64,000 bases of DNA from an uncultured delta proteobacterium (GCA_963771175.1 CAVYSY010000032.1:576001-640000); one strand, 5' to 3'; positions 454-57,938 are shown, numbered from the stretch's first letter. The notes: generated by a model not told the origin, from the letters alone. Numbers and translations are program-made.

Positions 454-1431
454 TCAGAGAAGTGCGAGCTGCTTGGGCTGTCCGAGGGCGCGCGCGTCCA
501 GTCCCTCGCCGCGCAGCACCTGGGCCAGCTCCTCGGCGAAACCGTGGAGGGTGATGACGTCCCGGGCGCCGGTGGCCTTCACGTAGCGCACCAGTGACGG
601 GCAGTCGGCATGGTCCGACAGCGGGAAGGCCACGTCCGCGCCGTAGCGGCGACAGGCGCCCGGCCCATCCAGCGCCCAGCCGGTGAGGACGGCGGTGGCG
701 CGCGGCCAGAAGGGCGCGAGTGCCCCACCCCGCGCCAGGTGCGGCGGGAAGAAGAGCACCTCGCCCGGCTCGACGCGGCCCTCGAAGCGCCGCAGCGGCT
801 CGATGGGGACGCCCAGCTCGCCGTACAGCTTCGTCACCTCGTAGATGGAGGAGTGCGCCACCAGCGGGAAGCCGCGGTCCGCCAGGTACTTCATCGCCTC
901 CTGGCTCTTGCCCAACGGGTAGGCCAGCAGCACCGGCACCGCGCCCCGCTCCTGGTGTCGGCGCACCCAGGACTCCACCTGCTCCAGCACCTCCTCGCGG
1001 GGCGGGAAGACGTAGCGCGGATGGCCGAAGGTGGACTCGATGACGAGCAGGTCGCACTCGGCCACCTGGAGGGGCTCGGCGGTGAGCGAGGGAGCGAGGT
1101 TGAGATCCCCCGTGTAGACGATGCGCTTGCCGTCCTCGCGGATGACGCGGAGCTGGGCGCTGCCGAGGATGTGGCCCGCGGGCAGCAACTCCAGCGTCAG
1201 CGAGCCCAACGCGAAGGGGCGGCCGAAGGGGGCGGGCAGCGGAGCCTGGAGCGGACCCAGCCGGTGCGACATGAAGCGCAGGGTGGCGGCGGTGGCGATG
1301 GTGCGCTCGTGCCGGGCGATGTGGTCCGAATGCGCGTGGCTGACGAAGGACAGCGGGGACTTGCGTTTGGCGTCCAGGGACAGGGGCGTCCCCGTCAGGT
1401 GCAGTCCGTTCCTTCGCAGCTCGACGCTCAT
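454..1431 (-). CDS. MBL-fold/beta-CASP-type nuclease (ligase-associated DNA-damage exonuclease-like)
   Basis: SHAHSDH, AGHILGSA, YTGD, ESTFG and LSDHAD motifs; ATG at 1431 chosen as start. Confidence 0.8.
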   Translation of the reverse strand: MSVELRRNGLHLTGTPLSLDAKRKSPLSFVSHAHSDHIARHERTIATAATLRFMSHRLGPLQAPLPAPFGRPFALGSLTLELLPAGHILGSAQLRVIREDGKRIVYTGDLNLAPSLTAEPLQVAECDLLVIESTFGHPRYVFPPREEVLEQVESWVRRHQERGAVPVLLAYPLGKSQEAMKYLADRGFPLVAHSSIYEVTKLYGELGVPIEPLRRFEGRVEPGEVLFFPPHLARGGALAPFWPRATAVLTGWALDGPGACRRYGADVAFPLSDHADCPSLVRYVKATGARDVITLHGFAEELAQVLRGEGLDARALGQPKQLALL

Positions 1432-1547
1432 GGGAAGCGCTGGGTATAGCGGTTCCCGCCGGGCATGCACGCCTTCTCGTCTGAGCCGTCAGCCCGAGCG
1501 CCGGGCAGGCAGGAGGACGGGCCAGCCGCGCTCCGGTAGCGGGAGGC

Positions 1548-2480
1548 TCAGGCGCTCGCCGGGCGCAGGCGCCCGAGGAAGTGGCCCCCCAGCTCGGCCA
1601 CCAGCACGCCGGCCACGATGAGGCCACCGCCCACCCACTCACGCACGCCGAGCACCTCGTAGCCGAGCGCCACCGAGTACACCCCCGCGAAGACGGGCTC
1701 CATGGAGCAGATGAGCGCCACTCGCACGGCGGTGGTGCGCGCCTGCGCCCACGTCTGCACGCAGATGGCCACCGCGCTGGCGAAGAGGCCGCAGAAGGCC
1801 GCGGCCCCGACGAAGGACGGCGTCCACTCCACTCGGGCCCCAGTGAAGGGCAGGCAGAGCGCGGACAGCCCGGCCACCACCCAGAGCTGCACGGCCACCA
1901 GTGCCACCACGCCCGACTTCGGCGCGTAGCGCTCGGTGAGGAGGATGTGGAAGGCGTAGGCTACCGCGCAGCCCAGCGTCAGCCAGTCCCCCGAGGACAG
2001 GCCCTGCTCCGCCCCCACCTGCGCATCGGTGAGGTAGCGCAGGCCCACCGCCGCCAGCACCACGCCCACCCACGAGGAGGCGCGCGGCCTGCGCCGGAAG
2101 AGGGCCAGCCCCAGCACCGGGACGAACACCACGTACAGCCCGGTGATGAAGGCCGAGCGCGAGGGCGTGGTGGACACCAGCCCCACCGTCTGCAGCACGA
2201 AGCCGAGAAAGAGGAAGACGCCCAGCAGCAGCCCCCGGCGCAGGGCGAGGGGGTCGAGCATCTCGCGCCGCGCAATCCCCGTGAGCGCCAGCGCGCCGAT
2301 GCTGAAGCGCAGCGCGAGGAAGGAGTACGGGTCTCCGTGGCTCAGCGCCCCCTTCACCACCACGAAGGTGATGCCCCAGAAGGCGGTCATGAGGGCCAGC
2401 GCCCCGTCCGCCTGGAGGCGCGCACTGCCCTCCGGGTGGCTCGGGACGTCGGTCGTCATGGAAGGAGAGGTGCTGCTCAC
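1548..2480 (-). CDS. DMT/EamA family transporter
   Basis: About 10 hydrophobic segments, FWGITF and EPVF motifs; start GTG 2480 or ATG 2459. Confidence 0.85.
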   Translation of the reverse strand: MSSTSPSMTTDVPSHPEGSARLQADGALALMTAFWGITFVVVKGALSHGDPYSFLALRFSIGALALTGIARREMLDPLALRRGLLLGVFLFLGFVLQTVGLVSTTPSRSAFITGLYVVFVPVLGLALFRRRPRASSWVGVVLAAVGLRYLTDAQVGAEQGLSSGDWLTLGCAVAYAFHILLTERYAPKSGVVALVAVQLWVVAGLSALCLPFTGARVEWTPSFVGAAAFCGLFASAVAICVQTWAQARTTAVRVALICSMEPVFAGVYSVALGYEVLGVREWVGGGLIVAGVLVAELGGHFLGRLRPASA

Positions 2481-2497
2481 GGGATGTCGCTTTTGGC

Positions 2498-3439
2498 CTA
2501 CCCGCCGGGCCAATGCAACGGGGAGGCCCCCCCACCCAGGGTGAGCACCATCACCCTCCGGGTGCCAGCGAGCTCCACCTCGCGAAAACCCCGGGAGCGG
2601 AAGAGTTGGAACAGACGCGTGTCCCGGGTGGGAAGCTCCACCCACAGCTCCGACAGTCCCCGGGAGCTCGCCTCTTCGGCCAGGGCGCGCAGGAGGGACG
2701 CGCCCACGCCCAACCGGCGCGCCACGGGGGCGACCACCACCCAGCGAACCCGGGCCCTGCCCCCACTCCGTCCCGCCTCGCGCTCGGGAGCCTCGGCGTA
2801 CCCGAATCCCCAGGAGCGGCCCCTCTCGTCGAATGCCCCCACCGCCAGCCCCGCCCTCTCAGCGAGCATCGAGCCCAGCTCCGCCGCGGCATGAGGCAGG
2901 TGATGCCCCATGAAGACGAGCAGGGCCTCCTCTTCCCCGGGCCGGAGCGGGCGCACCGTCAGCGCGCCGAGCCACCGGGCCCGCCCGGACCGCGACCACG
3001 AAGACGTGGCCCACTCGCGCACTTGCTGCCGGGCGCCACGAAGCGCGGGACTCTGGAAGGTGGCGCTCCCCAGGCGCTGGGCGGCATGGAGGAGCGGGCG
3101 CGCGAGCACGGGGACCGGAAGCACCAGTCCCCGGGTGCGGACGCGGACGACCCGACCCAGCAGCTCGGCGGATGGGTCCTCGCGCCCCAGAAACGAGGCG
3201 GTGCGCAGCGGGGACGTGCTCGTGACGAGGTGCGCGGTCAGCCCTCCCCCGGCGCGGGCCAGCATGGCGATGTCTCCGGGCGCCACGGCCTCCGCTCCAC
3301 ACCGGAGCACCTGGACGGCATCGCCACTGCGCAACAGGGGCCACATGCTCCGGCCCAGCCCGCGCACCCAGAGGCGCGTGCCCGGGGGGCTCGCCGCGAG
3401 AAAGGCCGCCAGCTCAGCCGTGGGAGGACGGGAGGCCAT
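2498..3439 (-). CDS. S24/S26-family peptidase fused to C-terminal GNAT acetyltransferase
   Basis: N-terminal RGLGRSMWPLLRSGD...AHLV (Ser/His); C-terminal VAPVARRLGVGASLL...FRSRGF acetyl-CoA motif. Confidence 0.7.
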   Translation of the reverse strand: MASRPPTAELAAFLAASPPGTRLWVRGLGRSMWPLLRSGDAVQVLRCGAEAVAPGDIAMLARAGGGLTAHLVTSTSPLRTASFLGREDPSAELLGRVVRVRTRGLVLPVPVLARPLLHAAQRLGSATFQSPALRGARQQVREWATSSWSRSGRARWLGALTVRPLRPGEEEALLVFMGHHLPHAAAELGSMLAERAGLAVGAFDERGRSWGFGYAEAPEREAGRSGGRARVRWVVVAPVARRLGVGASLLRALAEEASSRGLSELWVELPTRDTRLFQLFRSRGFREVELAGTRRVMVLTLGGGASPLHWPGG

Positions 3440-4187
3440 GCACCCACGCATCGAGGAAACCCGCCACGGCCGGGTCCTTGCGGAACGTCAGGCGAAAACC
3501 GGGAACGGGCGCCATCAGTGCACCCAGCCGCGACAGCGTGCCGGCCCCAAGGCTCAGCCCCTCGGCATCTCCTCCCTGGAACACCTGCCCGAGCAGCGGC
3601 GCCACCAGGGCGGACGGGCGCACCGGGGTCAGCGACTCGGCCTGTCCCTTCTCCAGGAGCAGGAAGGCCCGCGACCGTGCCTCGGCGCGCGTGGCGGACA
3701 GGTCCGGATCCGAGCGAAACGGACTGCCGCACACGAGGCCGCCCGGCAGCAGCGCCACCACCTCGTCCGAGAGCAGCGCGGCCCGTCCCGACTGGACGCA
3801 CAACCGCGAGAGGGTGGACTTGCCGGCGCCACTGGGGCCCAGGGCCACCACCGCCTCTTCGCCAAAAGCCACGCCCGCGGCATGCAGGCAGAGACCTCCC
3901 TGCCGGAGGATGGCGAGCTGGAAGAGCGCACGCAGCGCGAGCTCCGCCGGGAGGAGTGACAGGGGCGCATCCGTCACCAGCCCGTCCTCCTCCACCCGGA
4001 CGGAACCGAGCGCCGGCTGCTCCGGCTGGAAGGGCCGGGCCCCCGCGCCCAGGTCGGACAGCCGCCTCAGCCGCAGCCTCGGTGGCTCTTCCGTCAGGAA
4101 GGGCTCGTAGCCACACCGAGGGAGGGCCGCGTCGAGGAGGGCCTCCTCGACCTCACATGCCCAACGGCCGAAGCGCAGCCGAGCCAT
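3414..4187 (-). CDS. HPr-kinase-related P-loop protein
   Basis: LHAAGV, Walker A GPSGAGKST, LLSDE. Confidence 0.75.
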   Translation of the reverse strand: MARLRFGRWACEVEEALLDAALPRCGYEPFLTEEPPRLRLRRLSDLGAGARPFQPEQPALGSVRVEEDGLVTDAPLSLLPAELALRALFQLAILRQGGLCLHAAGVAFGEEAVVALGPSGAGKSTLSRLCVQSGRAALLSDEVVALLPGGLVCGSPFRSDPDLSATRAEARSRAFLLLEKGQAESLTPVRPSALVAPLLGQVFQGGDAEGLSLGAGTLSRLGALMAPVPGFRLTFRKDPAVAGFLDAWVHGLPSSHG

Positions 4188-4196
4188 CCCGCGGAC

Positions 4197-4337
4197 CTAC
4201 TGGCACTCGGGACGTGGATCGTAGAAGGGATCGCAGTTCGTCGGCGCGAACAGGTCCGGCACGAGGATGCGCTCGGACCGCACCCGCGGAGGACGGTAGG
4301 GCTTCTTGGGAGCTGGCTGCTGCGTTTCCGAGCGCAT
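4197..4337 (-). CDS. 46-aa putative RiPP-type precursor peptide MRSETQQPAPKKPYRPPRVRSERILVPDLFAPTNCDPFYDPRPECQ
   Basis: Hand-translated; fills the gap between flanking genes (11 and 9 nt spacing); AGGA upstream; KKPYxPPxV leader motif. Confidence 0.75.
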   Translation of the reverse strand: MRSETQQPAPKKPYRPPRVRSERILVPDLFAPTNCDPFYDPRPECQ

Positions 4338-4348
4338 GGCGAGGTTTC

Positions 4349-7300
4349 CTAATACCAGATGACGATCTTCCCAGGGGTATCGAACGGGTCACCCGCCGCC
4401 ACGTCCGGCGCACCATCCCCGTTGAAGTCTCCCGTCACGACACCCACGCCCAGCGTTTTGATTCCCTTGAATCGAGACTGGTTGAAACCCTCTCCGGCCA
4501 CGGAATCGAACGGAGCCCCGGAGCCCCCCCGGTTGTAGAGGACCCAGGCCGAGGAGCCCGTAGTCGCGTTCTCGCCAGCGATGAGGTCCGGCAACCCATC
4601 CTGGTTGATGTCCGCCGAGGCCAGCGAATAGCCGAAGAAGCGCTTGCCCGTGATGCTGCTATCGGAGGCTCCCACGGTGATGGACTTCTCCGACTGGACG
4701 AACCCCGTCGCCCCACCATCCGGGAAGACGCGCAGGATGCTCGTCTCCGGTTGACTGACGACCAGGTCCTTCGCGGGTCCACCGGTGAAGTCCACGCGGC
4801 CCACCACGTCCACCCCGAAGCCGTTCTGGCCTCCGGAGCTGCTCGGGCCACGAGTGAGGGTCTGGAGTGCGTCCGCGACCGTCAACGTCCGCTCCGCCGG
4901 AGTGGCACCGGTGCGAGCCTCCAGGACGCTCCCGGGATAGATGTAGACGCGGTTGATCGTGTCGAGGGGCGCGGAGAGCGAGAGCTCCGGCTTGCCATCG
5001 CCGTCGAGGTCTCCGACGTTGGCCTGACCTCGCCGCCGGCCGAAGAGGATGGTCCCGCTCGCCGAGAGGGTCGCGTCTCCTTCGAAGATGCGATCCGCGT
5101 TGTCCACGGGCACGAAGGACACGCCGCTCTCATTGCCAGTGGCGGCTGCCACCCAGTCCGCCCGGGTGCGCCCGAAGAAGAGATAGACCATGCCCCGCCC
5201 AGCAACCGAGTTCTCCCGGTCGGCACTGAAGAGCACCTCGGACAGCCCATCCCCGTTGAGGTCCGGGAGAATGCGGGCCGCGAAGCCGAAGTTCGTCACG
5301 CTCACGCCAGCCCGGCCCCGGAACTCGATGGGAGTCGGATCCACCGGCAGGCCCGTACGGCCGAAGTAGAGGAAGGCCCGGCCTCGCGAGCCGGACCAGA
5401 GGGGCGCGCCCACCAGCAGGTCCGGTCGCCCCTCTCCGGAGGTGTCGCCCACGTTGCCCACCGCCACCTCGGCGCCGAAGCCCTGGGTGGCCGGCACGGA
5501 CGTGGGAGGCCACAACGTCAGGGGCGTATCGCTCGCGGACAAGGGGTCGGAGTAGACGTGGACGGCCCCCACGTTCGTAGAGCCCGCGTAGCTGGCCTTC
5601 GAGTCCCCCGTCACCAGCTCGTCCTTGCCATCCCCGTTCAGGTCACCGCTGGCCAGGACGAGACCGAAGAAGCCGGACGCGTTCGTGGGGTTGGTGAGAA
5701 CCTTGCTCGAGAGGTTGTCGATCGTCGGGCTGGAGATGGCACGGAAGGCCGAGACGTTGCCCACCTCGTCGCGCGCGCGGACCTCGATGAAGTACTTCGC
5801 CAGCGGAGGCAGGGTGAGCCGGTAGGCCGTGGTGTCCGCGGGCAGCAACGTCCCGGTCTCCTGCCGCACCTTGGGCCCGGAGTACGTGGCCTCGTCCGGG
5901 ATGCCCGTCTGCAGCAGCGTGTCGGTGGTCCAGCGCAGGTCGTATCCCACGGGAGTGCCCGTGCTGCCGTCGTCGCCGCTCGGCGTCCACGTCACGTCCA
6001 CCCAGGCCTTGCGCGCCCCACCGTCGGGAATCTTCGCGATGAAGTCCACCTGGGCCGGAGCCTGCACATCCACGGTGACGTTGATGGTGTACACCGTCTC
6101 GTTGAGGGCCGCGTCGCGCACCTTCAGCTCCAGCGGCCCGGCGGTGCCCTGCGGCAGGGTGAGGGGAATGGTCAGCGACTCGGGACTCATGGAGACCGGC
6201 AGCGACGCGAGCTCCGTGCCCCGATAGAAGACGCGCAGCCGACCCCCAATGGCCCCCGCCACCGTCGCGCCGGAACTCCGCATCCGCATCCCCGCCCACC
6301 GTGAGATCCTCCACGTAACCAGCGCCCGGCAGGTTCACGTTGGACTTGGACACATAGGTCAACGTCGTCAGTGCGGGAGAGACGGTGTCGAAGTTCGGCG
6401 GAGTGATGTCCACCGTGTAGTCGACGAAGTCGCTCGTCCGGTTCCCCGCCGAGTCGACCATCTCCACCGTCAGCCGGGACTGCTCGCCATCCGGCAGCGA
6501 CACGTCGAAGGAGAACTCGCCCGAGAGCGGATCCGCCATCGTGGAGCCCTGCGCGGTGCTGCCCTTGGAGAGCGACACCGTCCGGCCCGCGCAGCGCGTG
6601 GTGCGCCCACGCACCGTGGTCTGCAGGCCCGCCGCGCTCGCGTTCCCGTCATCCGCTCGGTTGAAGGTGACCGGGGTGCCCGCGGGCGAGGTGAGCGAGA
6701 CGTCGCAACCCACGAGCGTCACCGTCACCGCCGTCGAGAGCGCCGAGCCGACGTTGCCCGCGGCGTCCACGGCCTGCACCGACACGTCCTGCGTGCCGTC
6801 GGGCAGGTTCACGGTGCCCTGCGCCACCCCGCTCAACACCGGGAAGGAGCCCACCTGCTGCGGCGCGTCCGTCCCAAGCTGGGTGAAGACACGCACGTCG
6901 AGTCCCTCGCCGCCCACGACCTCCACCCGTACCGTCACCAGCGAGGAACTCAGGGTGGCGCCAGAGGCGGGGCTGACCAGCGTGAGACGCGGAGCGTCCA
7001 GGTCCACCTTCACCGGCCTGCCCACCGATGTGCCCTTGTTGCCCGACAGGTCCTGGGCCGAGAAGACGAGCATGTAGTCCCGCGTACCCGTGGCCGCCAC
7101 CGTGAAGTCGTGGGTCACCGCACGCCCCACGGGCGTCTTCGTCACCACCGTGCCCACGGGCTCCAGGCTCAAGGAGACGCCACCGGGGCCCACGTCGGCG
7201 CTCGTCAGCGCGCTGGCCCTGAGCTGGTAGTCCGGCGCCCCCGGGTCCGCATCGTCCGCCGGTCCGACCGTGAGCTTGCCCGGCGAGGTGGGGGTGATCT

Positions 7301-10212
7301 CGGGCACCACCCGGTCCAACCGGAAGGAGGTGAGCGCCACGGCGTTGACCGGATCCAATGGATTGGGCGGCACGGCGGCCACGGTCCGGTTCACGTTGCC
7401 CGCATCGTCCGTGAGGAAGACCACCAGCGAGTAGTCCGCCTCCTCGCTGGGTGGGAGCGCGGAGAGCGTCACCTCGGTGAGGTCTCCCGTGGACGTCGCC
7501 TGGCCGTAGAGGGTGTTCTTCGCCGCGTCGCGGACGTGGACCGGCCGGCCCGGGACCAGCCCGGTGGTGGACACGCGCAAGGACCGGGGCACCCGAGGGC
7601 CACTCCGTGGCATTCACCCTACGGTCCCCGTTGACGTCGCCCTTGAACTCGAGCGCGGTGACCTCCGGACGCCTGCCGTCCACCAGCAGCGACACGGGCG
7701 CGGACTCGTCGAGGTGGCCGCCATCGTCGAGCACCACCTTCAGCGAGTACTTCCCGTCCGGGTAGGAGAACAGGGCGGTGGAGTCCGGTACGCCGGAGGC
7801 CAGGGTGAACCAGCCGCTCCCGTCACGGCACGGAGTCGCCGCCGGAGTGAGCGCGATGCTGGTGCACACGTCCACCGTAGCCGACGGGGAGGCACCGTTG
7901 AGGCTGTAGGCCAGGGGATGCTGAATGCCGGGCGTGGTCGGGTCGCGATCCGACCCCAGGTTGTAGGTGGTGGAGGCGCCCGGTGAGGTGAGGGTGATGG
8001 CACCCGGCGAGGTGTCCACGGTGTACAGCGCGCTCGCGCAGGCCCCGGCACCGGCCCCGTTCACCAGCACCGCGCGCAGCACGTTCACGCCATCGGCGAG
8101 CTGCACGCCCGAGAAGGTCTTCCCGGTGTCGGCGTCCGTCACGGCGGAACTCGCCACCTGGGCGGTGTCGCGGAAGAGCTTCAGCTCACCCACGGCACCG
8201 GCGGAGAAGGCCAGCGTCATCGGCACGAGGAGGTTGCCATCCAGCGCCGTACCGTCGGCCGGCCCCAGCGTCCGGGAGGCATCCGGCGAGGCGAACGTCA
8301 GGGAAGAGACCGCGAAGGCCGAGCTGACGGGCACCTCCACCGAGGCCTCGTTGCCCGCGAGGTCCACCGCCCTCGCGGAGAACGAGCAGGAGCCGCTGGC
8401 GGGAACGGTGACGTCTCGCAGCGTGGCCCGGCCCAGGGCCTCCGCGCTCGCCGTGAGGGTGGCGGGCAGCCCGCAGCCCTGGACGAGCACCTGCGCGAAG
8501 GGCTCCGTCACCGCCTCGAGCACCACCTGGGTGCCGGGCAGCGGGGAGGTGTCGACGAAGGAGGGCTCGATGCGACCCTCGGGCGCGTCGCGCACGGTGA
8601 CGGCGAGCGTGGGAGGCGAGGTGTCACGGGACACAGTGACGGCCTGGCTGACAGCGCCCCCGGCACACGAGGCCACCAGCTTCCAGGCGCCGTCCCCCGA
8701 CAGGTTGAGCGAGACAGAGGCCGCGCCGCCCGAGGCCGTCCCCGGCACGTTCTCCGTGGCGCCAGGCCCCTGCGCGGAGAGGAGCACGGGCCCGTTGTTG
8801 TTGAGCGCCTCCACCCTCACCACCACCGGATTGCCACCGGCAGGCAACACCGAGCCCGGAGCGGGCTCGACGATGCGGCAGTCCGGACGGCCCGTCTGCA
8901 CCTGCGTCGTGGCGAGCCTGCACACCTGGGAGCCGGCCACGTTGCGCACGCAGGCCTTCACCGAGTTGGACCCCTCGGCGAGCGACAGGGGGAAGCGCGC
9001 CACCCGACCCACCCCACTCTCCTCCACCGTGCGCGCGCGTTGGGGCTGGCCGAGCCGGCCCGTCACCGTCGTCCACAGCTCCACCTCCGTGCCCACCGGC
9101 TGGTCGTCCAGCTTCACCACCGCCTCGGCCACTGCGGGCTGGCCCGCGGTGGAGGTGGTGACCTTGTCCGGCACCACCAGGACGGGCGCGGGCAGGGCAC
9201 TCGCCACCACCACCGCGAGGGGCTTCTCGGTGACGTTGCCACCGGAGTCCGTGATGCTGAGCAGGAAATCGTGACTGCCGTCCCCGGGGACGGTGACCTC
9301 CGAGAAGGTGGCCAGCCCCGCGCGCACCGTGGTCGTCAGGGCCGTGGCCCCCGAGCGCGACAGCGTCGCCGTGGCCCCGTCCTCGGCCGAGCGCACCACC
9401 GCCTCCACTTTGAAGGTGGGCGTGGTCACCGCGGACACGGGCGAGGCGAGGGCCAACCGAGGCCCCTCGGTGTCGAACGTCAGGCCGCGCGCCGGAGAGG
9501 TCACATCCCCTCCGGACCGCTTCACCACCGCCACGCACTGGGAGAGCTGGGCCTCGCGCACCGGCTCGGAGAGCGTCACCCGGGCGCTGGCCTTGCCATC
9601 ATCTCCCACCGTGAAGGGCACCGGCGCGATGCCGCACACGCCCGCGCACGAAATGAGGCCACTGGCCCGGCGCAGCCCCGTGGCCCGCAGCTCGAAGGCC
9701 ACCTGGTAGCCTGGCTGCAGTGGCTCCGCGTCATCCGCCTCGCGCAGCACCTGGCCCTCGACGGGGCTGACGATCTCCAGGCCCGGGGGCTCCACGCCCA
9801 CCGTCACGCTCTGGTTGTTCGTGGCCGTGCGCTTCGAGCCCTGCTCCTCCACCGACACCCGCAGCACGTTGGTGCGTCCCGGCAGCGTCACCCCGGGGAA
9901 GCGCACCCGCTGGCCCTCGAGCACCGCGGCCGGTCCCGCGCGCCAGTCCGACTCGCCCGCGAGCTGCACCTCCAGCTTCGCCGTGGACAGCGTCACCGCG
10001 CGCCCAGCCGAGTCCGCCGCCACCGCCACTACGTCGTATTGGAAGCCCTCGGCCGCCGGGTCCGCGTCATCCCCCAGGGCCAGCCGCTGGCCGTCCACCG
10101 GCTGTTCGAACGCCACCGTCAGCGAGGACTCCACCGGCGGCGTGCCACACGTACACCCCGCCATCCACAGCGCACACACCGCCAGAAGCCACTGCCATCG
10201 TGCTCGATGCAT
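4349..10212 (-). CDS. Giant lipoprotein (~1950 aa) with multiple Ig-like repeats and C-terminal FG-GAP repeats; two frameshifts (~7580, ~6272)
   Basis: Lipobox WMAGC; repeated D..GN Ig-like motifs; GDLNGDG/FG motifs; three ORF-track pieces join with single-base corrections. Confidence 0.75.
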
Positions 10213-10280
10213 GACTGCCCCTCGTGCCTCTCGGGTCCCCCCAGGGGACCCCGCGTGCCGGCCTTCGACCATCCCGGACC

Positions 10281-10580
10281 TCACGACCCGAGCACCAGCA
10301 CCTTCTTGTCCACCAGGAGCCTCACGAAGGTGACCGTGTCCTCACGGCACACCGCGGGCTCCACCTCGAACTCCTCGCACAGCGCGGCCACGATGTCGCT
10401 CAAGGTGCGCCGCCCGTCGACCAACTCGAGGATGCGCTCGGCCACCTCGGACACCTCGCCGCCCTCGTCCTCGAACGTGTGCAGGGTGTCGTCGGGGCCC
10501 ACCGCCAGCATCCGGTCTCCCACTCGCTGCACGCCCACGTCCGGGTGGAAGCGCGGCACCGCATCCATCCCCTCACCCAT
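10281..10580 (-). CDS. PqqD-family protein (RiPP recognition element)
   Basis: ILELVDGRRTLSDIVAALCEEFEV...CREDTVTFVRLL signature; start uncertain (10568-10595). Confidence 0.85.
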   Translation of the reverse strand: MGEGMDAVPRFHPDVGVQRVGDRMLAVGPDDTLHTFEDEGGEVSEVAERILELVDGRRTLSDIVAALCEEFEVEPAVCREDTVTFVRLLVDKKVLVLGS

Positions 10581-10767
10581 GTGCGTCTGTCCCACAGGCC
10601 CTCCTGGCCCGCCAGTCCTGTGCGAAGTGGGTGCGATGCTACCCGGTCCCCATCCCCCAGGCCAGGAACGTGGCCTGCTCGCCAGCCCTGTTGTCGACTA
10701 GTCGAGACCCGCTATGACGGAGACACGTGCCACCCTTCGGGTGGCCGGAGGGAACCTGGAAGAATCC

Positions 10768-11301
10768 ATGAACACGGTGCCAGAAGGCGAGATGGCCCCC
10801 CAGCGGGGCTGGTGGAGTCGCAATTGGAAGTGGGTGGTGCCCACGGGCTGCCTGGGGCTGCTGCTGTCCTGCGGCTGCCTGGGTGCCGTCTTCATCGGCG
10901 CCATCACCCAGTCCCTCCGGGGCTCGGGCGCCGTCGTCGAAGCGGTGGCCCTGGCGAAGCAGTCCCCCGAGGTGCGGCAGGCGCTCGGCGAGCCCATCGA
11001 GGCGGGCCTGATGGTCCAGGGCAGCATCCAATCCAGCGGGGGCCAGGGCTCGGCCGACGTCACCATCCCGCTCGATGGACCCAAGGCGGATGGCACCCTG
11101 CGCGTGGAGGCCTACAAGGACGGGGAGACGTGGAAGTTCACCACCCTCCAGGTGGAGGTGCCCGGACAGCCCCCCATTGACCTGCTCGGAGCCAGGCCCG
11201 CGCCGCCCGCCAACACCGTCCCCTTCCCCGACACGAGCCCAGAGGAAGAGCCCCTGCCCGAGGAGCAGGAGCCCGACCACGAGGAGGACATCGAACTCTA
11301 G
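10768..11301 (+). CDS. Coa1-like (cytochrome c oxidase assembly factor 1 family) membrane protein
   Basis: WWSRNWKW, one TM helix, ALGEPI..G, IPLDGPKADG. Confidence 0.65.
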   Translation: MNTVPEGEMAPQRGWWSRNWKWVVPTGCLGLLLSCGCLGAVFIGAITQSLRGSGAVVEAVALAKQSPEVRQALGEPIEAGLMVQGSIQSSGGQGSADVTIPLDGPKADGTLRVEAYKDGETWKFTTLQVEVPGQPPIDLLGARPAPPANTVPFPDTSPEEEPLPEEQEPDHEEDIEL

Positions 11302-11371
11302 ACGCGGGAGACCCCGCAACGCCGAAGGGGCGGCGCGAGGAGAAGTCCCCGCCACCGCCCCTCCTGGAGTC

Positions 11372-11393
11372 AGGGCCCGGAAGACCGGGCCCC
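11372..11393. terminator. Hairpin between convergent genes
   Basis: GGGCCCGG-AAGA-CCGGGCCC. Confidence 0.5.
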
Positions 11394-11406
11394 TCTTCAC
11401 GAGCGA

Positions 11407-12375
11407 CTAGCCCTTGGCCTTGTGGATGGCCTCGCGCAGCGCGGGCAGCACCTTGAAGAGGTCCTCCACCAGCCCGTAGTCCGCCACCTGGAAGATGGGG
11501 GCCTCGGGGTCCTTGTTGATGGCGACGATCGTCTTCGAGCTCTTCATGCCCGCGAGGTGCTGGATGGCCCCGCTGATGCCCGCGGCGATGTAGAGCTGCG
11601 GCGCCACGACCTTGCCCGTCTGGCCCACCTGCAAGTCGTTGGGCACCCAGCCGGCGTCGCACACCGCGCGCGAGGCGCCCACCGCGGCGCCCAGCTCGTC
11701 GGCCAGCGCTTCAATCTCCTTGAAGTCGCCCTTGGTGCCACGACCGCCGGAGACCACCACGCGCGCCTCGGTCAGCTCGGGCCGCGCGCTCTTGACCTCC
11801 TTGAAGTCGACGAACTTCGTCTTGCCCGTCTCCACCTTGGGCGAGAAGGCCTTCACCTCGGCGGCGCCCTGACCGCCCTGGGCGGCGGGGAACTCGGTGG
11901 CGCGGATGCTGATGACCTTCACCGGCGTGGTGAGCTTCACCTCGGCGAAGACGTTGCCCGCCCACATGGGCCGGTGGAAGGTGATGTCCGCGCCGCTCCC
12001 GCCAAAGCCCATGATGTCCGTGGCCATGGCGGCCTGCAGGCGAGCGGCCACGCGGGGCATCAGATCCTTGCCCTGGGCGGTGGACGCCATGCCCACGTAG
12101 TCGGCACCGATGGACTTCGCCAGCTCGGCGATGGCCGGGGCGTACGTCTCGGCCAGGTAGTGCTCGAACTCGGGCGCCGTGGCGGTGTGGACCGCCTTGG
12201 CCCCCAGGCCCTTGAGCTCCTCGGTGACCTTGGAAGGATCCTTGGAGAGCAGCACCAGGTGCAGCTCCGCGCCCGCCTTCTCGGCGAGCTGCTTGCCCGC
12301 GCCAATGGCGTTGAGGGTGGCCTTGCGCAGGTTCCCGTCCGGCTGCTGCTCCGCAACGATGAGAACGATCGGCAT
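11407..12375 (-). CDS. etfA: Electron transfer flavoprotein alpha subunit
   Basis: [34 protein letters not shown]. Confidence 0.95.
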
Positions 12376-13360: not shown

Positions 13361-14499
13361 CTACTTGAACAGCTCGCGCGCGATCACGAGGCGCTGCACC
13401 TGGCTGGTGCCCTCGTAGATCTGGATGAGCTTGGCGTCGCGCATGAGCTTCTCCACCGGGTATTCCTTGATGTAGCCGTAGCCGCCGTAGATCTGCACGG
13501 CGTCGGTGGCGACCTTCATGGCCATGTCGGCGGAGAAGCACTTGGCGTAGGAGGACTGCAGGCGTGGCCCGCTGGCCCTCGTCCAGCAGCCAGGCGCTCT
13601 GGTGGCACAGCAGGCGCGCGGCCTGGATGTTCATGGCCATGTCGGCGAGCATGAACTGGATGGCCTGGTGCTCGCGGATGGGCTTGCCGAACGTCTTGCG
13701 CTGGGCGGAGTACTCCAGGGAATACTCGAGCGCGGCGCGGGCGATGCCCACCGAGAGGATGGCGGTGATGGGACGGCTGTTGTCCAGCGTCTCCATGGCG
13801 ATGCGCCAGCCCTCGCCCTCCTCGCCGATGCGGTTGGCCACCGGGACGCGCACGTCCTCGAAGGTGAGCGCCACGGTGTCGCTGGCCCGCTGGCCCATCT
13901 TGTTCTCGTGCTTGCCCACGGTGAGGCCCTTGGGACGGCCCTCGACCACGAAGCACGTAATCCCCTTGTGCTTCCTGGCCTTGGTCCACGGTGGCGAACA
14001 CCGTGTACTGGTCCGCGTGGCCACCGTTGGTGATGAAGCACTTGGAGCCGTTGAGGACGTAGTGGTCGCCGTCGCGCACCGCGGTGGTGCTCATGCCGGC
14101 CACGTCCGAGCCCGCCTCCGGCTCGGTGAGGCAGAAGGAGGCGAGCTTGAACTTCTCGGAGAAGGGCGTGAGCAGCCGCTTCTTCTGCTCCTCGGTGGCG
14201 CCCACGATGATGGGCAGGTTCGCGAGGTCATTGGCCGTGATGGAGGTGGCCATGCCCGCGCAGCCCCAGGCCAGCTCCTCGTAGGCCAGGAGCTGGTCCA
14301 GGTGCGACATGCCCAGGCCGCCACACGACTCCGGGAGGGCCATGTTCAACAGGCCGTTCTCCCAGGCCGAGGCGATGATCTCCCGGGGGAACTCGGCGGT
14401 CTCGTCATGATGGGCCGCCTTGGGACGAATGACCTCCCGGGCGAACTTGCGCGCCATGTCCTGCAGGGCACGCTGGGATTCGGAGAGCTGGAAATCCAT
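13361..14499 (-). CDS. Acyl-CoA dehydrogenase (frameshifts ~13985, ~13565)
   Basis: [29 protein letters not shown]-terminal QIYEGT in another frame. Confidence 0.9.
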
Positions 14500-21487: not shown

Positions 21488-22236
21488 TTACTCGCCGGCC
21501 GGCGCGGGTTCGGGAATCTCGATGAGGCCCGCCCGGTCCAGCAGCTCGCGCACGCGCGTGGTGAAAGCCACGTGCTCGGGGTTGCTGGCCGTCATGGGCT
21601 CGGGGGAGAGCACGAGGAGCCAGCCCAGCGTGCCCACCGGCTCGATGCGCACGGGCGCGGGCAGTGGCGGCAGCTTGCCCCGCCGGCGCGACAGGTACGT
21701 CAGCCAGCCCACCCGCACCTCGAACCTGCCCTTCTCCACGAGGTCCACCATCTCGGCGGAGGTGGCCATGGCGAAGTCGGGGTCCCACGCCGTGGCCATG
21801 CTGGTGAGCACTTCGGCTCATCAGGACGGCGTCGCGCACCAGCCGCTCCCATACCGCGCCTCTCCCCGGTAGGGTTGGAGCAGGCACGAATTGGGCCCCC
21901 CCAGGGGAGTATTTGCCACAGGAGAAGTGGATGATGGATGGCCTCCTTCTTCGCGTTCCACACCCTCTGGCGGAAGCCCATGTCTTCGATGACTTCCTTG
22001 TCGACATCCGTGCGGTGCCTGCCCTTCAGGAAGAACTCCTCCAGCTCCTTCACCTCCGGGCGGACAGGCTGGCCCGGCAGCTCGCGGGGGAAGCCACGGC
22101 CCGCCCGGTACCACTGGGCGAACGACGGGTCACACCGCGCCAGCATGTGGAAGAAGAGCTCCGCGCGCCGGGCACACTCCAGCGCCGTCTCCTTCCGCGG
22201 ACCCCAGTACGCCCCCACGTAGTACCTCTCCTGCAT
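21488..22236 (-). CDS. Imm52-like immunity protein (several frameshifts ~21815-21930)
   Basis: YYVGAYWGPRKE, AWDPD, VGWLTYL, LPPLPAPVRIEPVG. Confidence 0.75.
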
Positions 22237-22249
22237 GCGTGCTCCTCCC

Positions 22250-23813
22250 CTACCGCGCTGGTCGCGTATGGCGGACGGTGATGTTGGTCCATCCTTCTCT
22301 CTCGAAGATTTCGCGAAGGAACTCCGCGACCTTGGCATCGGCGACATGCCAGGTCAGCGGCAGTCCCAACCGCGCGAGCCAGCTTCGATTGCTTCTCGGC
22401 TTGCTTCATCATCTCGTCGAACTTGCCGGAATTCTCGTACCAGTACTTGGGCGTGCCATCCGCGTTGAAGAAGGAGCAGTAGCCGGGGCCCTTGGCCTCC
22501 AGCAGTTCCTTGCCCCTGATGCCGTCGAACTCCACCTTCCCAATCATGTACACCCACCACGCGGGCCGCCCCGTCACCTGCTCCTGGTAGTCCAGGGAGT
22601 CCTTTGAATCGGTGGTGGGCTTCTTGTACGTCCACCTGCCGGGCCCCTGCGTCGCAGCCGTCTGGGTGGACTTCCCCGCCTTGCCGCTCCCGCCGCCAGT
22701 GTTTCCCGGGCCGCTGCTGGCCATGTGGAGGATGGAGAGCGCTCCCAGGTCCATGCCCACGGTGGCTGTCGTCGTGCCCCCCGCCACCACGACTCCGCCC
22801 AGCACCATCTCGCCCTCGGCCGTGAGCGACAGCACCGGCAGCTCCGCCCCGAGCCCGCCCAGGCGACCCACCGTGGCCTCCGCCCCCCCGAGCATCATGA
22901 TGATGTGCGTGGACAGGCGCGCCGCCTCGCGTATCTGGTCCTCTCGGGACATGGCGCCGTAGCGCGCGAAGTATTCGGGCGAGGAAGCAATGAGGAGCGC
23001 CACCGTGGTGGGCAGTTGCGCAAGCTCCTCGACGGTGCGGATGGGGTGGAGGATGGACTGGGCCAGCGCCACCGCCATCTCCCCCATGGCCAGCTCGGCC
23101 CCGTCGAGCGCGGCGTTGAGCGGGTCCCTCCCCAGACCCAGCTCCGCCAGGGGCGGGCTGTCCGCGCGACGCAGGGCCTCGGTGACCGGGTAGAAGACGC
23201 CACCGCGCGAGAAGTAGAAGGCACCCACCCGAAGCCGGCCCACCTTCCACTCGCCCTCCACCAGCTCGAGCGGACCCATGCGCTGAATGGGGGTGCCGGT
23301 GAGCGCGGCCACCAGGTAGCCGTCCGGACGCACCAGCACCAGCAGCCAGAAGCGCTCGGCACGCCACTTCAAATCGGCGTACTCCACCCGCTCGCCGCCT
23401 TCGAGCACCTCGCGCAGCAGCCACGACAGCACCCGGTGCGGGGCGAAGCTCCTCTGCGTCACGGGCGTCTTCGCCAGCCGGCCCAGCAGTTGGCGCGCTT
23501 GTTCCACGTAGAGCGCCGCGCCCGCCGGGTGCCGCGCCTCTTCCTCCAGGCCGCTCGCCTCCTGCACCACCTGGAAGGCATCCGCCATCTGCTCGGGGAA
23601 ACCACCCCCGCCTCCCTCCGCCTCCACTGGCGCGGGAGTGACTGCCACTTGTCGAGGGCCGGAGCTGTCACGCGACGAAGCGGGCCGCGAGTGGAGGCCG
23701 AAGCCGCTCACCAGACTCCCGCGCGGATGGCCCGTGGCGCACCCTTCGAGGAGCACGAGCGCGACCAGGGCCAGGAGGACCAGGCCGCGCGAGCCAACAA
23801 GACGAGTGGACAT
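22250..23813 (-). CDS. Lipoprotein polymorphic toxin with C-terminal Tox-REase-5 nuclease (frameshift ~22375)
   Basis: Lipobox LEGC; YQEQVTG, EFDG...LLEAKGPGY, WHVA in alternate frame; upstream of the Imm52-like gene. Confidence 0.8.
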
Positions 23814-55987: not shown

Positions 55988-57938
55988 TCACGAGGCCAGC
56001 AGCGACTGCACCAGCCCGCGGAGCTCCTGGGAGGAGAAGGGCTTCTCCAGCCGGTGGTTGCTCACGCGGCCCAGGAACGCGCGGGCATTCGTCGTGAAGG
56101 CCCCTCCCGACAGGAACACGAACCGCTCGGCCAGCTCCGGCGAGTGGCTCGCGAGCTCCTGGTGCAGGTCCATCCCGCTCATCTCCGGCATCATCACGTC
56201 GCACAGGATGACGTCGAAGCGCTCACCGCCCGTGAGCCGCGCATGGGCCTCCCGCGCGCTCGTCAGCACCACGACCTCGTGCTCGCGCTGGAGCGTGCGG
56301 CGGATGGCCATGCCGATCAGCGGCTCGTCGTCCACGACCAGGATCCGCCCCCGCCGCGACACCGCGGGACGCCAGGGCGGGCGGCGGCGCCTCGGCGGCG
56401 AGTGAGGCCGGGAATGGCGGCGGGCAGGATGACCCGGAAGGTGGCTCCCCTTGCCCGACCTCGCTCTCCACCTCCATCCGTCCGCCGAAGCCGGTCACGA
56501 TGTCGTGGCAGATGGACAGGCCGAGCCCCGTCCCCACTCCGACGGGCTTCGTCGTGAAGAACGGCTCGAAGAGCTGCTCCAGGTGCTCCGGCGGACATGC
56601 CCGACGCCCGTGTCGCGCACCTCGATCAGCCACGCCCTCGGCATGGGGCCGCGTGACGATGCGGATCTCATTCCGCTCCACGTCCCCCTCGGGGATGGCC
56701 TGCGCCGCGTTGACGAGCAGGTTCAGGAACACCTGCCCGAGCCGGCCCTCGTTCGCCGCGACCACGAGCGGCTCGGTGTAGTCCGCACCAGCCGCGCGCG
56801 GTGACGGATCTCCGTTCGAGGCCATGCTGATGGCGGTCTCGAGCACCCGGTGGACGTCCACGGGCTCCGGCCGGGCGTCCTCTTCCGTGCGCGAGAACAT
56901 CTTGAGCTGCCGGACGATGTCCCGCACGCGGCCCGCCCCGAGCTGCGCATCGGAGAGCAGCTTGCGGACGTCCTCCCGGTGGCCGGCGGGCAACCCCAGC
57001 TCGGGGAGCACCTCCGACTCCAGGTGGGTGAGGTTGGCGATCGCATAGGCGAGCGGGTTGTTGATTTCGTGAGCGATGCCCGCCGCGAGCGTCCCGAGCG
57101 AGGCCATGCGATCCGCGCGCAGAAGCTGGACCTCCATCTGCTTGCGATCGGTCAGGTCGTGCACGATCCGGATCAGGCAGGGCCGGCCCTCGAACATGCC
57201 AGGAACCTGGGAGATCTCCGCGGGAACGACGCCTCCGGACTTGCGAAGGATACGGACCTCCCACGACGACACCGCCTTGCCCGCCCGCAATGCCTCGCGG
57301 ACCTCGCGAGGGACCGACGCGAAATCCTCCGGGTGGATGAAGGCGGTCGCCAGCTCCGCCGAGGACAGCCCCAGGAGTTCCTCCGGAGAACCGCACCCGA
57401 GCAGCGTGACGAGCGTGGGGTTGACGTAGACGAGCTGGTCGCCCTGCAGCACGGAGATGCCATCGGGCAGCCGCTCGATGAGCGTGTGGAAGCTCACCTG
57501 GGAGCGGCGCAGCGTCTCCCGCGTGCGCGAGTGCTGGAGCGCATAGCGGATCGCCCGCTCCAGGAGGGTCGGGAGTGAGCTGGGACTTCACGAGGAAGTC
57601 GTCGGCGCCGGCCTCCAGGGCCCGCTGGTCGATCTCATCATCCCCCAACCCGGTCAGCAGGATGACCGGGCCGCGCCAGCCCCGCTGCCGCACCTGCGCG
57701 AGCAGCTCGAGCCCCGTCATCGCACCGAGGTGATAGTCGAGCAGGCACACGTCGTGGCCCCCGGCCTCCACCGCGGCGAGCGCATCCTCTCCGGTCGACA
57801 CCCACTCGAGCACCATCCGCCCCGAGCCGATGGAACGCAGGGTGTCGCGCGTCACCACGAAGTCGTCCTCGTCGTCCTCGACGAGCAGGACCCGAATGGG
57901 TGGCTGGCCTCTCTCAGTCTTCATGGGGAGCCGTCGCG

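Follow-up and report, generated by a model that had tools for sequence, protein, structure and literature searches.

A probable peptide-maturation operon coupled to a giant surface lipoprotein in an uncultured delta proteobacterium

Gene content of the cassette

We examined a 64,000-nucleotide stretch of DNA from an uncultured delta proteobacterium (GCA_963771175.1 CAVYSY010000032.1:576001-640000; hereafter the window, with positions counted from its first letter) that carries a compact cassette combining genes typical of peptides that are made by ribosomes and then modified post-translationally (RiPPs) with a gene for a giant surface lipoprotein. A preliminary description, made from the sequence alone, had listed six co-directional, tightly spaced genes here, and codon-position G+C together with the list of open reading frames (ORFs) places all six on the minus strand, in a region of 70-74% G+C. 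In reading direction they encode a PqqD-type RiPP recognition element (RRE) of ~99 residues (10284..10580; the ATG at 10580 is the likelier start, and the ORF including its stop and an upstream GTG spans 10281-10595), the giant lipoprotein (4349..10212, start ATG at 10212, ~1950 residues on read-through), a 46-residue precursor peptide (4197..4337), a 257-residue HPrK-like P-loop kinase (3414..4187), a peptidase with a C-terminal GNAT acetyltransferase (2498-3439/3451; 317 residues over 2498-3451) and an EamA-family (DMT) transporter (1548..2480, GTG at 2480), a neighbour that is doubtful as part of the system. With plausible start codons the spacings were reproduced as well: 68 nt between RRE and giant, 11 nt between giant and peptide, 9 nt between peptide and kinase, an overlap of 26 nt between kinase and peptidase-GNAT if the ATG at 3439 is taken, and 17 nt from there to EamA. 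The presence of RRE, HPrK-like kinase, S26-type peptidase and YxxP peptide, as first proposed, is borne out by Pfam matches, motifs, folds and alignment.

The RRE matches Pfam PqqD (1.6e-13). A profile of 12 orthologues matched the lasso-peptide RRE TbiB1 (4.3e-9), PbaB1 (9x90; 8e-6) and LppB (9x8z; 5.4e-5), as well as PqqD; the protein thus appears to be a generic lasso-type RRE, better matched by TbiB1 than by LppB. For the kinase, the best NCBIfam matches were HprK_rel_A (3.7e-6) and HprK_rel_B (1e-4), both far under their cut-offs. Its invariant positions are His102, a P-loop of the form G-x-S-G-x-G-K-S/T and the pair Asp141-Glu142, and its AlphaFold2 (AF2) model, with a mean predicted local distance difference test score (pLDDT) of 94, retrieved PEPCK (7e-7) and HprK/P (1.6e-4) with Foldseek.

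The peptidase domain (3047..3451) is of the archaeal/Sec11 signal-peptidase type, with an N-terminal helix and a Ser35/His74/Asp92 triad. Motif and model place it in clan SF, among the serine peptidases of archaeal/eukaryotic signal-peptidase kind that use a His, and the model has a LexA/UmuD/signal-peptidase fold. In an alignment of 12 sequences, His74, Asp92, Pro38 and Gly59 are invariant and Ser35 is nearly so; the motif G-R-S-M-W-P is followed after 39 residues by x-A-H-L-V and then by a conserved Asp. The top sequence matches of the family profile in the PDB were SEC11C (E 0.036) and SEC11A (0.08), over G-S-M-x-P and x-H-R-V. The AF2 model (pLDDT 86.5) retrieved the C-domains of LexA, UmuD and lambda cI (1.7e-4), followed by SpsB, SipA and SEC11C; its helices at residues 11-20 and 115-132 are short, and it shows no long hydrophobic one. 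Of the 12 family members, 7 are matched by Pfam Peptidase_S24. The window's own domain gave no peptidase match in Pfam/NCBIfam at E <= 0.01, and at E <= 1 solely Peptidase_S24 (0.15). The enzyme shares its G-x-S-M-x-P Ser motif, x-H-R/L-V His motif and downstream Asp with the Sec11/SipW archaeal-type signal peptidases, which we take to be MEROPS S26B, but differs from them in being fused to a GNAT domain, in lacking a long hydrophobic helix in its model and in being paired with an RRE. The GNAT domain (approximate limits 2498..2900) matches Pfam Acetyltransf_1 (1.5e-6, residues 217-289), and its nearest NCBIfam model, under its cut-off, is RimI (1.2e-5), an N-terminal alanine acetyltransferase.

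The small ORF between the giant gene and the kinase carries a [Y/W]xxP motif in all 20 loci compared. The window's peptide has a basic N-terminus, a Y-R-P-P-R-V (YxxPxV) leader running to D-L-F, and a variable tail with one Thr, an invariant Cys-x-Pro and a second Cys. Across loci, the N-terminal half is conserved (a basic stretch, Y-x-x-P-x-V/I, R/K-S/T-E, then D/N-L-F) and the C-terminal part is variable; Pro17 and Cys35 are invariant in the alignment, and Tyr14, Ser21 and Pro37 nearly so. As read from this alignment by eye, a Ser/Thr stands at +2 or +3 from the D/N-L-F-type position in all 20 rows. The peptide matched no family of Pfam or NCBIfam; its conserved leader and variable tail form the pattern expected of a RiPP precursor. 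The invariant Cys raised the possibility of lanthionine-type chemistry (phosphorylation, elimination, Cys addition), which we set aside, as no lyase or cyclase is present.

The giant protein begins with a signal peptide ending in A-G-C (a lipobox), which recurs in loci L051 and L052, and continues with Ig-like Big_13 repeats, a Glucodextran_B domain and five C-terminal FG-GAP repeats (Pfam FG-GAP 4e-31), which form a beta-propeller. The ~1950-residue surface lipoprotein of the preliminary description is upheld by these parts; as a single ORF it is not, since two 1-nt insertions interrupt it in the window. A complex prediction of the FG-GAP propeller domain with the precursor scored 0.28 against a mark of 0.32 and has no bearing either way. 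A role for the giant as immunity or export factor was also considered and judged unlikely for a 1950-residue lipoprotein.

Conservation and allele classes

The kinase is present in 28 of 41 related genomes and, leaving the window's own aside, in 17 of 17 genomes of the genus. Nineteen orthologous loci were compared (14 of the genus, four from other genera of the family and one from another family; six genera and two families), and the order RRE, giant, peptide, kinase is constant in all 19. The parts are thus co-conserved with the giant lipoprotein, as a gene-neighbourhood comparison had been proposed to show, and they are so again in more distant families. By tblastn the peptidase follows the kinase in 16 loci, to which alignment adds L053; two loci gave no peptidase, namely L042, where the contig stops 2 kb past the kinase, and L052, where an exonuclease gene sits between the giant gene and the kinase. 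The GNAT domain is full-length in six loci (window, L035, L036, L044, L049, L050), truncated in five (L043, L045-L048) and absent in seven (L037-L041, L051, L053). In another order, a 313-residue protein of genome G162 combines an S26-like G-V-S-M-A-P motif with a C-terminal GNAT; given this similar fusion and the variable presence of the domain, the peptidase-GNAT fusion appears to be old but dispensable. EamA is adjacent also in families f4 and f8 (L087, L096), is not in L053, L093 and L099, and shares with etfA and the exonuclease gene an old synteny block that persists across families. By these distributions neither GNAT nor EamA appears to be core, and the earlier inclusion of the two as working parts of the cassette is not sustained.

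Giant, peptide, kinase and peptidase diverge far more within the genus than their surroundings do. Median identities are 95% for etfA, 90% for the exonuclease and 82% for EamA, which evolves like the flanks, and 84% for the RRE, as against 54/43/45% for the three pieces of the giant, 45% for the kinase, 50% for the peptidase and 57% for the peptide. The variable genes fall into allele classes, each with its own peptide tail: class I (window, L035, L036), class II (L037, L039, L041), class IIb (L038, L040) and class III (L043-L048, L050). When the flanks are concatenated (13 rows), their tree sorts the genomes otherwise than these classes. In approximately unbiased (AU) tests, the flanks reject a class III clade (p = 2e-95) and a class II clade (p = 0.005), and the two flank clades are each rejected by the module data, which comprise the propeller part plus the kinase (p = 2e-5 and 2e-60). 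The p-values are generous, because we already knew the identity matrices when we named the groups; even so, the likelihood gaps are large (45 to 917 units). Within the window, the peptidase is class-III-like (75-84%) while the kinase and giant are class I (77-84%), which suggests a recombination break between kinase and peptidase. On the evidence of these comparisons, giant, peptide and kinase would constitute an exchangeable specificity cassette whose deep classes have been swapped among species.

A paralogous cassette and more distant loci

The genome of the window carries a second, paralogous cassette (G000 contig C46, L054:4041-9255), between a HisRS-like gene and miaA. We refer to the window's arrangement as type A and to this one as type B. 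Type B reads S24 peptidase, PqqD, a 152-residue lipoprotein, a 1020-residue secreted PQQ/BamB-like propeller protein, a YxxP peptide of ~60 residues, an HprK-like kinase and miaA, and 10 further genomes of the genus have it in conserved form (about 80-85%). The sequence of its peptide is Y-E-P-P-A-V-L-W-E-Q ... Q-V-S; in all 11 genus copies, Tyr, Pro, Val, Leu, Gln and a Ser at Y+18 stand in the register of the leader motif of the linear polyphosphorylated peptides (LPPs) described below. Types A and B hold non-homologous propeller proteins in the same slot, and this is the main argument that the big protein would belong to the system.

Across a sample of 401 genomes of the phylum, a profile of the kinase found matches in 255, a count that includes paralogues and radical SAM variants. 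Type A orthologue-level kinase matches occur in many genera of the family, and the two largest genera have paralogue-level matches only. At 20 more distant loci, the kinase is accompanied by both RRE and peptidase in 13, by one of them in five, and stands alone in two; a small [Y]xxP ORF directly precedes it in most. The 14 large ORFs found at such loci comprise six type A giants with Ig-like and/or FG-GAP domains (1840-3068 residues), five type B proteins with a PQQ/BamB-like propeller (1050-1490 residues), two radical SAM enzymes and one PqqD fusion. A locus search with the kinase alignment gave no evident close relative of the cassette among at least 38 matches listed, which by their titles come mostly from other phyla; among these matches, three of 38 have the three enzymes together, 17 of 38 kinase and RRE, and 18 of 38 the kinase alone.

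Several distant loci depart from the window in their gene content. A radical SAM/SPASM gene is part of the cassette in the type B locus L095, in L096 of family f8 and, in another order, in L099, and in L091 and L101 a radical SAM gene takes the place of the giant gene. At L099:4435-9444 (G162), a type A cassette is followed by genes for a radical SAM enzyme, an M1 peptidase, the S26-like/GNAT fusion and a MoxR AAA ATPase that matches the Pfam model for MoxR-vWA-beta-propeller ternary systems. At L092:5374-8205 (G114), the RRE domain forms the C-terminus of a 944-residue ORF. A Nitrospiraceae metagenome-assembled genome has, at L105:6089-12410, PqqD and two radical SAM genes, then a 61-residue Cys-bearing YxxP peptide with an HprK-like kinase, and after these a third radical SAM gene together with NTP_transf_5 and an S24/S26 peptidase, uniting SynChlorMet-like and LPP-like lists of parts in one locus.

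Breaks in the giant gene and neighbouring genes

In the window, the giant gene runs through three consecutive frames, read from codon-position G+C and the ORF list (10212 to ~7580, ~7579 to ~6270 and ~6269 to 4349). By blastn, each junction on this minus strand has one extra base relative to L035 and L036, the two closest relatives: TT for T at the first (7579..7580), and one base at the second (6269..6270). The three pieces are consecutive in the relatives' loci, with their start coordinates all in one frame in L035, and the gene is called as a single ORF in L051 (2319 residues) and L052 (1792 residues). In public sequencing runs 90-99% alike to the window, the extra base at 6269/6270 is absent from the contigs of four of four (X1-X4) and that at 7579 from three of three covering runs (X1, X2 and X4; X3 has no coverage there). 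A further gene, for an acyl-CoA dehydrogenase beside etfAB (13563-14406, minus strand), is frameshifted at ~13990 within its middle domain, with positions 1-51 of the Pfam profile in one frame and 55-97 in the next. Abutting frame switches, seen as jumps in codon-position G+C without a stop, also occur on both strands at ~57575, ~40250, ~22240-22400 and ~19750, and may be assembly frameshifts too; at 57575 a response-regulator receiver domain passes directly into a PAS/HisKA region across the switch. Given the related runs that lack the extra bases, the other frame switches in the window and a genome completeness of 81.7% (58 contigs), the two breaks in the giant gene are probably errors of an error-rich assembly. 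Less likely, they may mark a real strain-specific pseudogene.

Upstream of the RRE, a divergent Coa1-like gene occupies the plus strand (10714-11301), so that the cassette begins at the RRE. At the other end, beyond EamA (Pfam 1.9e-33), the cassette is adjoined by a ligase-associated exonuclease gene (Pfam/NCBIfam). A scan of 1300-11500 gave no promoter-like site and one terminator-like site, which lies inside the kinase gene; shuffles gave more, and the scan has no bearing on the operon. Elsewhere in the window, a short ORF (21937-22239, minus strand) matches Pfam Imm52 (immunity protein 52; 2.3e-17) and hints at a nearby polymorphic toxin/immunity locus.

Comparison with known systems

A literature search found no paper on this cassette in Myxococcota, and a single study bears on it, that of the LPPs of Bacillota (Popov et al., Nat Commun 2026, May; PMC13381572). 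LPP clusters comprise LppA/B/K/S/D/N, with a core of LppS, the discrete RRE LppB, the HprK-like kinase LppK, the NTP-transferase LppN and the MsbA-like exporter LppD. LppK adds one to four phosphates to core Ser3, and LppS, which is archaeal-type signal-peptidase-like with Ser29/His68/Asp93, cuts after T-1 only with LppB present and cuts unphosphorylated peptide poorly. For the leader the paper gives the motif YxxPxVLxHQxIxFETxxS. In Bacilli such clusters also sit in polysaccharide loci, the function of the peptides is given as unknown, and the family is given as restricted to Bacillota; among the 199 peptidase rows of the supplementary table (PMC13381572), the four from Myxococcota lie in minor network clusters, are unanalysed, and are none of them counted as LPP there. 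In a Chondromyces row of that supplement, the RRE appears to follow a P-loop kinase-like region.

With LPP clusters the window shares a discrete PqqD-type RRE, an HprK-like kinase and the lack of a macrolactam cyclase; an archaeal/SipW-type Ser/His/Asp leader peptidase with an N-terminal helix and the same 39-residue spacing from Ser to His in LppS and the window's enzyme; and a YxxPxV leader with a variable C-terminus and a Ser/Thr near the junction. Likeness to LppS and LppK was judged from the published description rather than by direct protein comparison. The window differs in its phylum, in a short Cys-bearing core against the 45-residue core of LPP, in the giant beta-propeller surface protein inside the cassette, in the GNAT that some members of the family carry on the peptidase, in a hypervariable specificity block and in an RRE that by profile score is not specifically LppB-like. 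In the window's genome, PF14907 (NTP_transf_5) passes the family cut-off on contig C57 only, with two sub-cut-off matches elsewhere. Contig C57 (L147:7562-11083) holds two such genes in a polysaccharide-synthesis locus with a UDP-glucose dehydrogenase and glycosyltransferases, a neighbourhood of the same kind as that reported for Bacillota LPP clusters.

Phosphorylated lasso clusters of the paeninodin type also resemble the window in their YxxP/WxxP leader, B1-type RRE and HprK-like kinase that phosphorylates the precursor (PMC13381572). The window's cassette differs from them in having no Asn-synthase-like cyclase, B2 cysteine peptidase or ABC exporter, and its leader peptidase is a serine enzyme. 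An Asn-synthase-like macrolactam cyclase and a B2 transglutaminase-like peptidase were absent from the cassette proteins, the rest of the 64-kb window not having been scanned for them. More broadly, the lack of lasso cyclase, radical SAM, YcaO and nucleotidyltransferase that was first claimed for the whole window held for the cassette proteins (Pfam/NCBIfam), which is its proper scope. A Paenibacillus terricola locus (L119) proved to be a lasso cluster rather than LPP, and is an example of the paeninodin type. The uncharacterized systems SynChlorMet (TIGR04248) and HPr-rel-A (TIGR04352/TIGR04355) presumably likewise pair a PqqD-family protein with an HprK-related kinase beside a small peptide gene, and we know of no function assigned to such pairings, which are represented by curated NCBIfam models. 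Distant relatives of the window's cassette resemble SynChlorMet in carrying radical SAM/SPASM enzymes; the window's own cassette has no radical SAM gene, ScmE/F included. The models of these systems scored 26 against a cut-off of 200, 22 against 200 and 18 against 100 bits, the first being the kinase under TIGR04352 (26.3 bits) and the last ScmD (TIGR04248, 18.2 bits).

Discussion

The gene content, catalytic motifs, folds, co-conservation and allele pattern observed here lead us to regard the cassette, with moderate confidence, as an operon that matures a peptide in the LPP manner and is coupled to a giant protein of the cell surface. By analogy with LPP, this reading would add phosphorylation, a cleavage site, acetylation, export and a contact between peptide and giant. 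The discrete PqqD-fold RRE would, in the role of LppB, bind the YxxPxV motif of the 46-residue precursor; the HPrK-like kinase, in the role of LppK, would phosphorylate a hydroxyl residue close to the junction of leader and core; and the Ser35/His74/Asp92 peptidase, like LppS, would cut the leader off the RRE-bound precursor. Where present, the fused GNAT might acetylate the product, which is predicted to be a linear phosphopeptide of about 12-25 residues that contains the invariant Cys-x-Pro and, as a rule, one more Cys. The giant lipoprotein would be the functional partner of the peptide, its beta-propeller most likely serving as surface receptor or carrier, and giant, peptide and kinase together would make up a specificity unit. 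The initial suggestion of a minimal peptide-modification system linked to the giant is thereby kept as to the linkage, which is conserved, and reduced as to newness, since the system is a variant of the LPP kind.

A number of points weigh against this view. All of its chemistry comes by analogy with LPP. Neither an NTP-transferase (LppN) nor an ABC exporter (LppD) occurs among the cassette proteins (Pfam/NCBIfam), and, of the LPP motif, the type A leader shares no more than YxxPxV with a Ser/Thr close by. For kinase and RRE alike, the scores under all NCBIfam models lie far below the curated cut-offs; the SEC11 matches of the peptidase are weak (E 0.036), and Foldseek puts LexA and UmuD first. 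The peptide has no signal peptide that would take it to an exported lipoprotein, and the only nearby transporter, EamA, shows the evolution of a housekeeping neighbour. In this assembly, moreover, the giant gene is interrupted. With radical SAM/SPASM genes in the distant loci L095, L096 and L099, the ancestral chemistry may have been different. As to the allele pattern, linkage alone would give adjacent genes common allele classes, class I is not rejected by the flanks (AU p = 0.10), and the naming of the groups after the fact bears on all the AU results. Type B, finally, is not hypervariable, its big protein (80%) and kinase (85%) being compared with 88% for hisS and 91% for miaA.

Much of this would also fit a plain member of the LPP family, in which giant, GNAT and EamA are unrelated synteny neighbours and a nucleotidyltransferase and an exporter act from elsewhere in the genome. 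The core parts do match LPP, the locus lies in the very old block from etfA to EamA and the exonuclease that is kept across families, and the two NTP_transf_5 genes on C57 sit in a polysaccharide locus of the sort that also holds LPP clusters in Bacilli (PMC13381572). We nevertheless think this explanation unlikely. The giant stands between RRE and precursor in every type A locus, a non-homologous propeller stands there in type B, and the giant has the allele classes of peptide and kinase rather than the history of the flanks; in addition, the RRE profile is closer to TbiB1 than to LppB, and the Myxococcota rows of the LPP supplement were not counted as LPP. The opposite emphasis, that the small ORF is not the (sole) substrate and that the enzymes process or regulate the giant lipoprotein, or that the peptide is an intracellular regulator of the giant's expression, draws on the position of the giant gene between RRE and peptide, the absence of an exporter and the co-variation of kinase and giant. 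It is the least probable of the explanations weighed here, for the RRE-binding YxxP motif, which was looked for in the small ORFs, is in the peptide in 20 of 20 loci, and a lipoprotein exported by Sec/Lol is an unlikely target of cytoplasmic enzymes.

Decay from a radical SAM (SynChlorMet-like) RiPP cassette has also to be considered. The invariant Cys would then once have been cross-linked by a lost or distant radical SAM/SPASM enzyme, with kinase and peptidase as accessories. Such genes accompany the cassette in L095, L096 and L099 and replace the giant in L091 and L101, three of them lie beside PqqD, a YxxP peptide, the kinase, NTP_transf_5 and S24 in the Nitrospiraceae genome, and Cys35 is invariant. 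We find this quite improbable, because neither the cassette of the window nor the 19 orthologous loci (L049 and L051-L053 with genes called) include a radical SAM gene. The L096 enzyme found just one weak, generic counterpart (E 9.5e-9, 29% over 156 residues) in the window's genome, which is 82% complete. Moreover, ScmD reaches 18 bits against a cut-off of 100, and the three enzymes are kept without radical SAM across a whole family.

If the cassette is an LPP-like maturation operon with the giant as partner, giant and phosphopeptide might fit each other at the cell surface as a polymorphic lock and key, the peptide acting as ligand or cofactor of an integrin-like propeller, the kinase tuned to each allele, and the exchanged classes serving self/non-self or adhesion specificity in social bacteria. 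We offer this tentatively; were it true, it would be the first biological function for LPP-type peptides. The core of RRE, HprK-like kinase, SpI-like peptidase and YxxP precursor was already known as the LPP core (PMC13381572), so that the label 'undescribed' in the preliminary description does not hold for it; the link to the giant is new. New here are a cassette devoid of NTP-transferase and ABC exporter, a giant propeller protein fixed within it that comes in two forms without homology to each other, a pair of paralogous systems in each genome and the evolution of one of them as allele classes. The LPP enzyme core would extend across a whole second phylum (kinase profile in 255 of 401 genomes, including paralogues and radical SAM variants), tied to a large secreted beta-propeller in two independent architectures, one held as exchangeable allele classes and the other conserved. 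For such peptides this suggests a role in partnering a surface protein, one that can be tested, as genetically tractable relatives exist.

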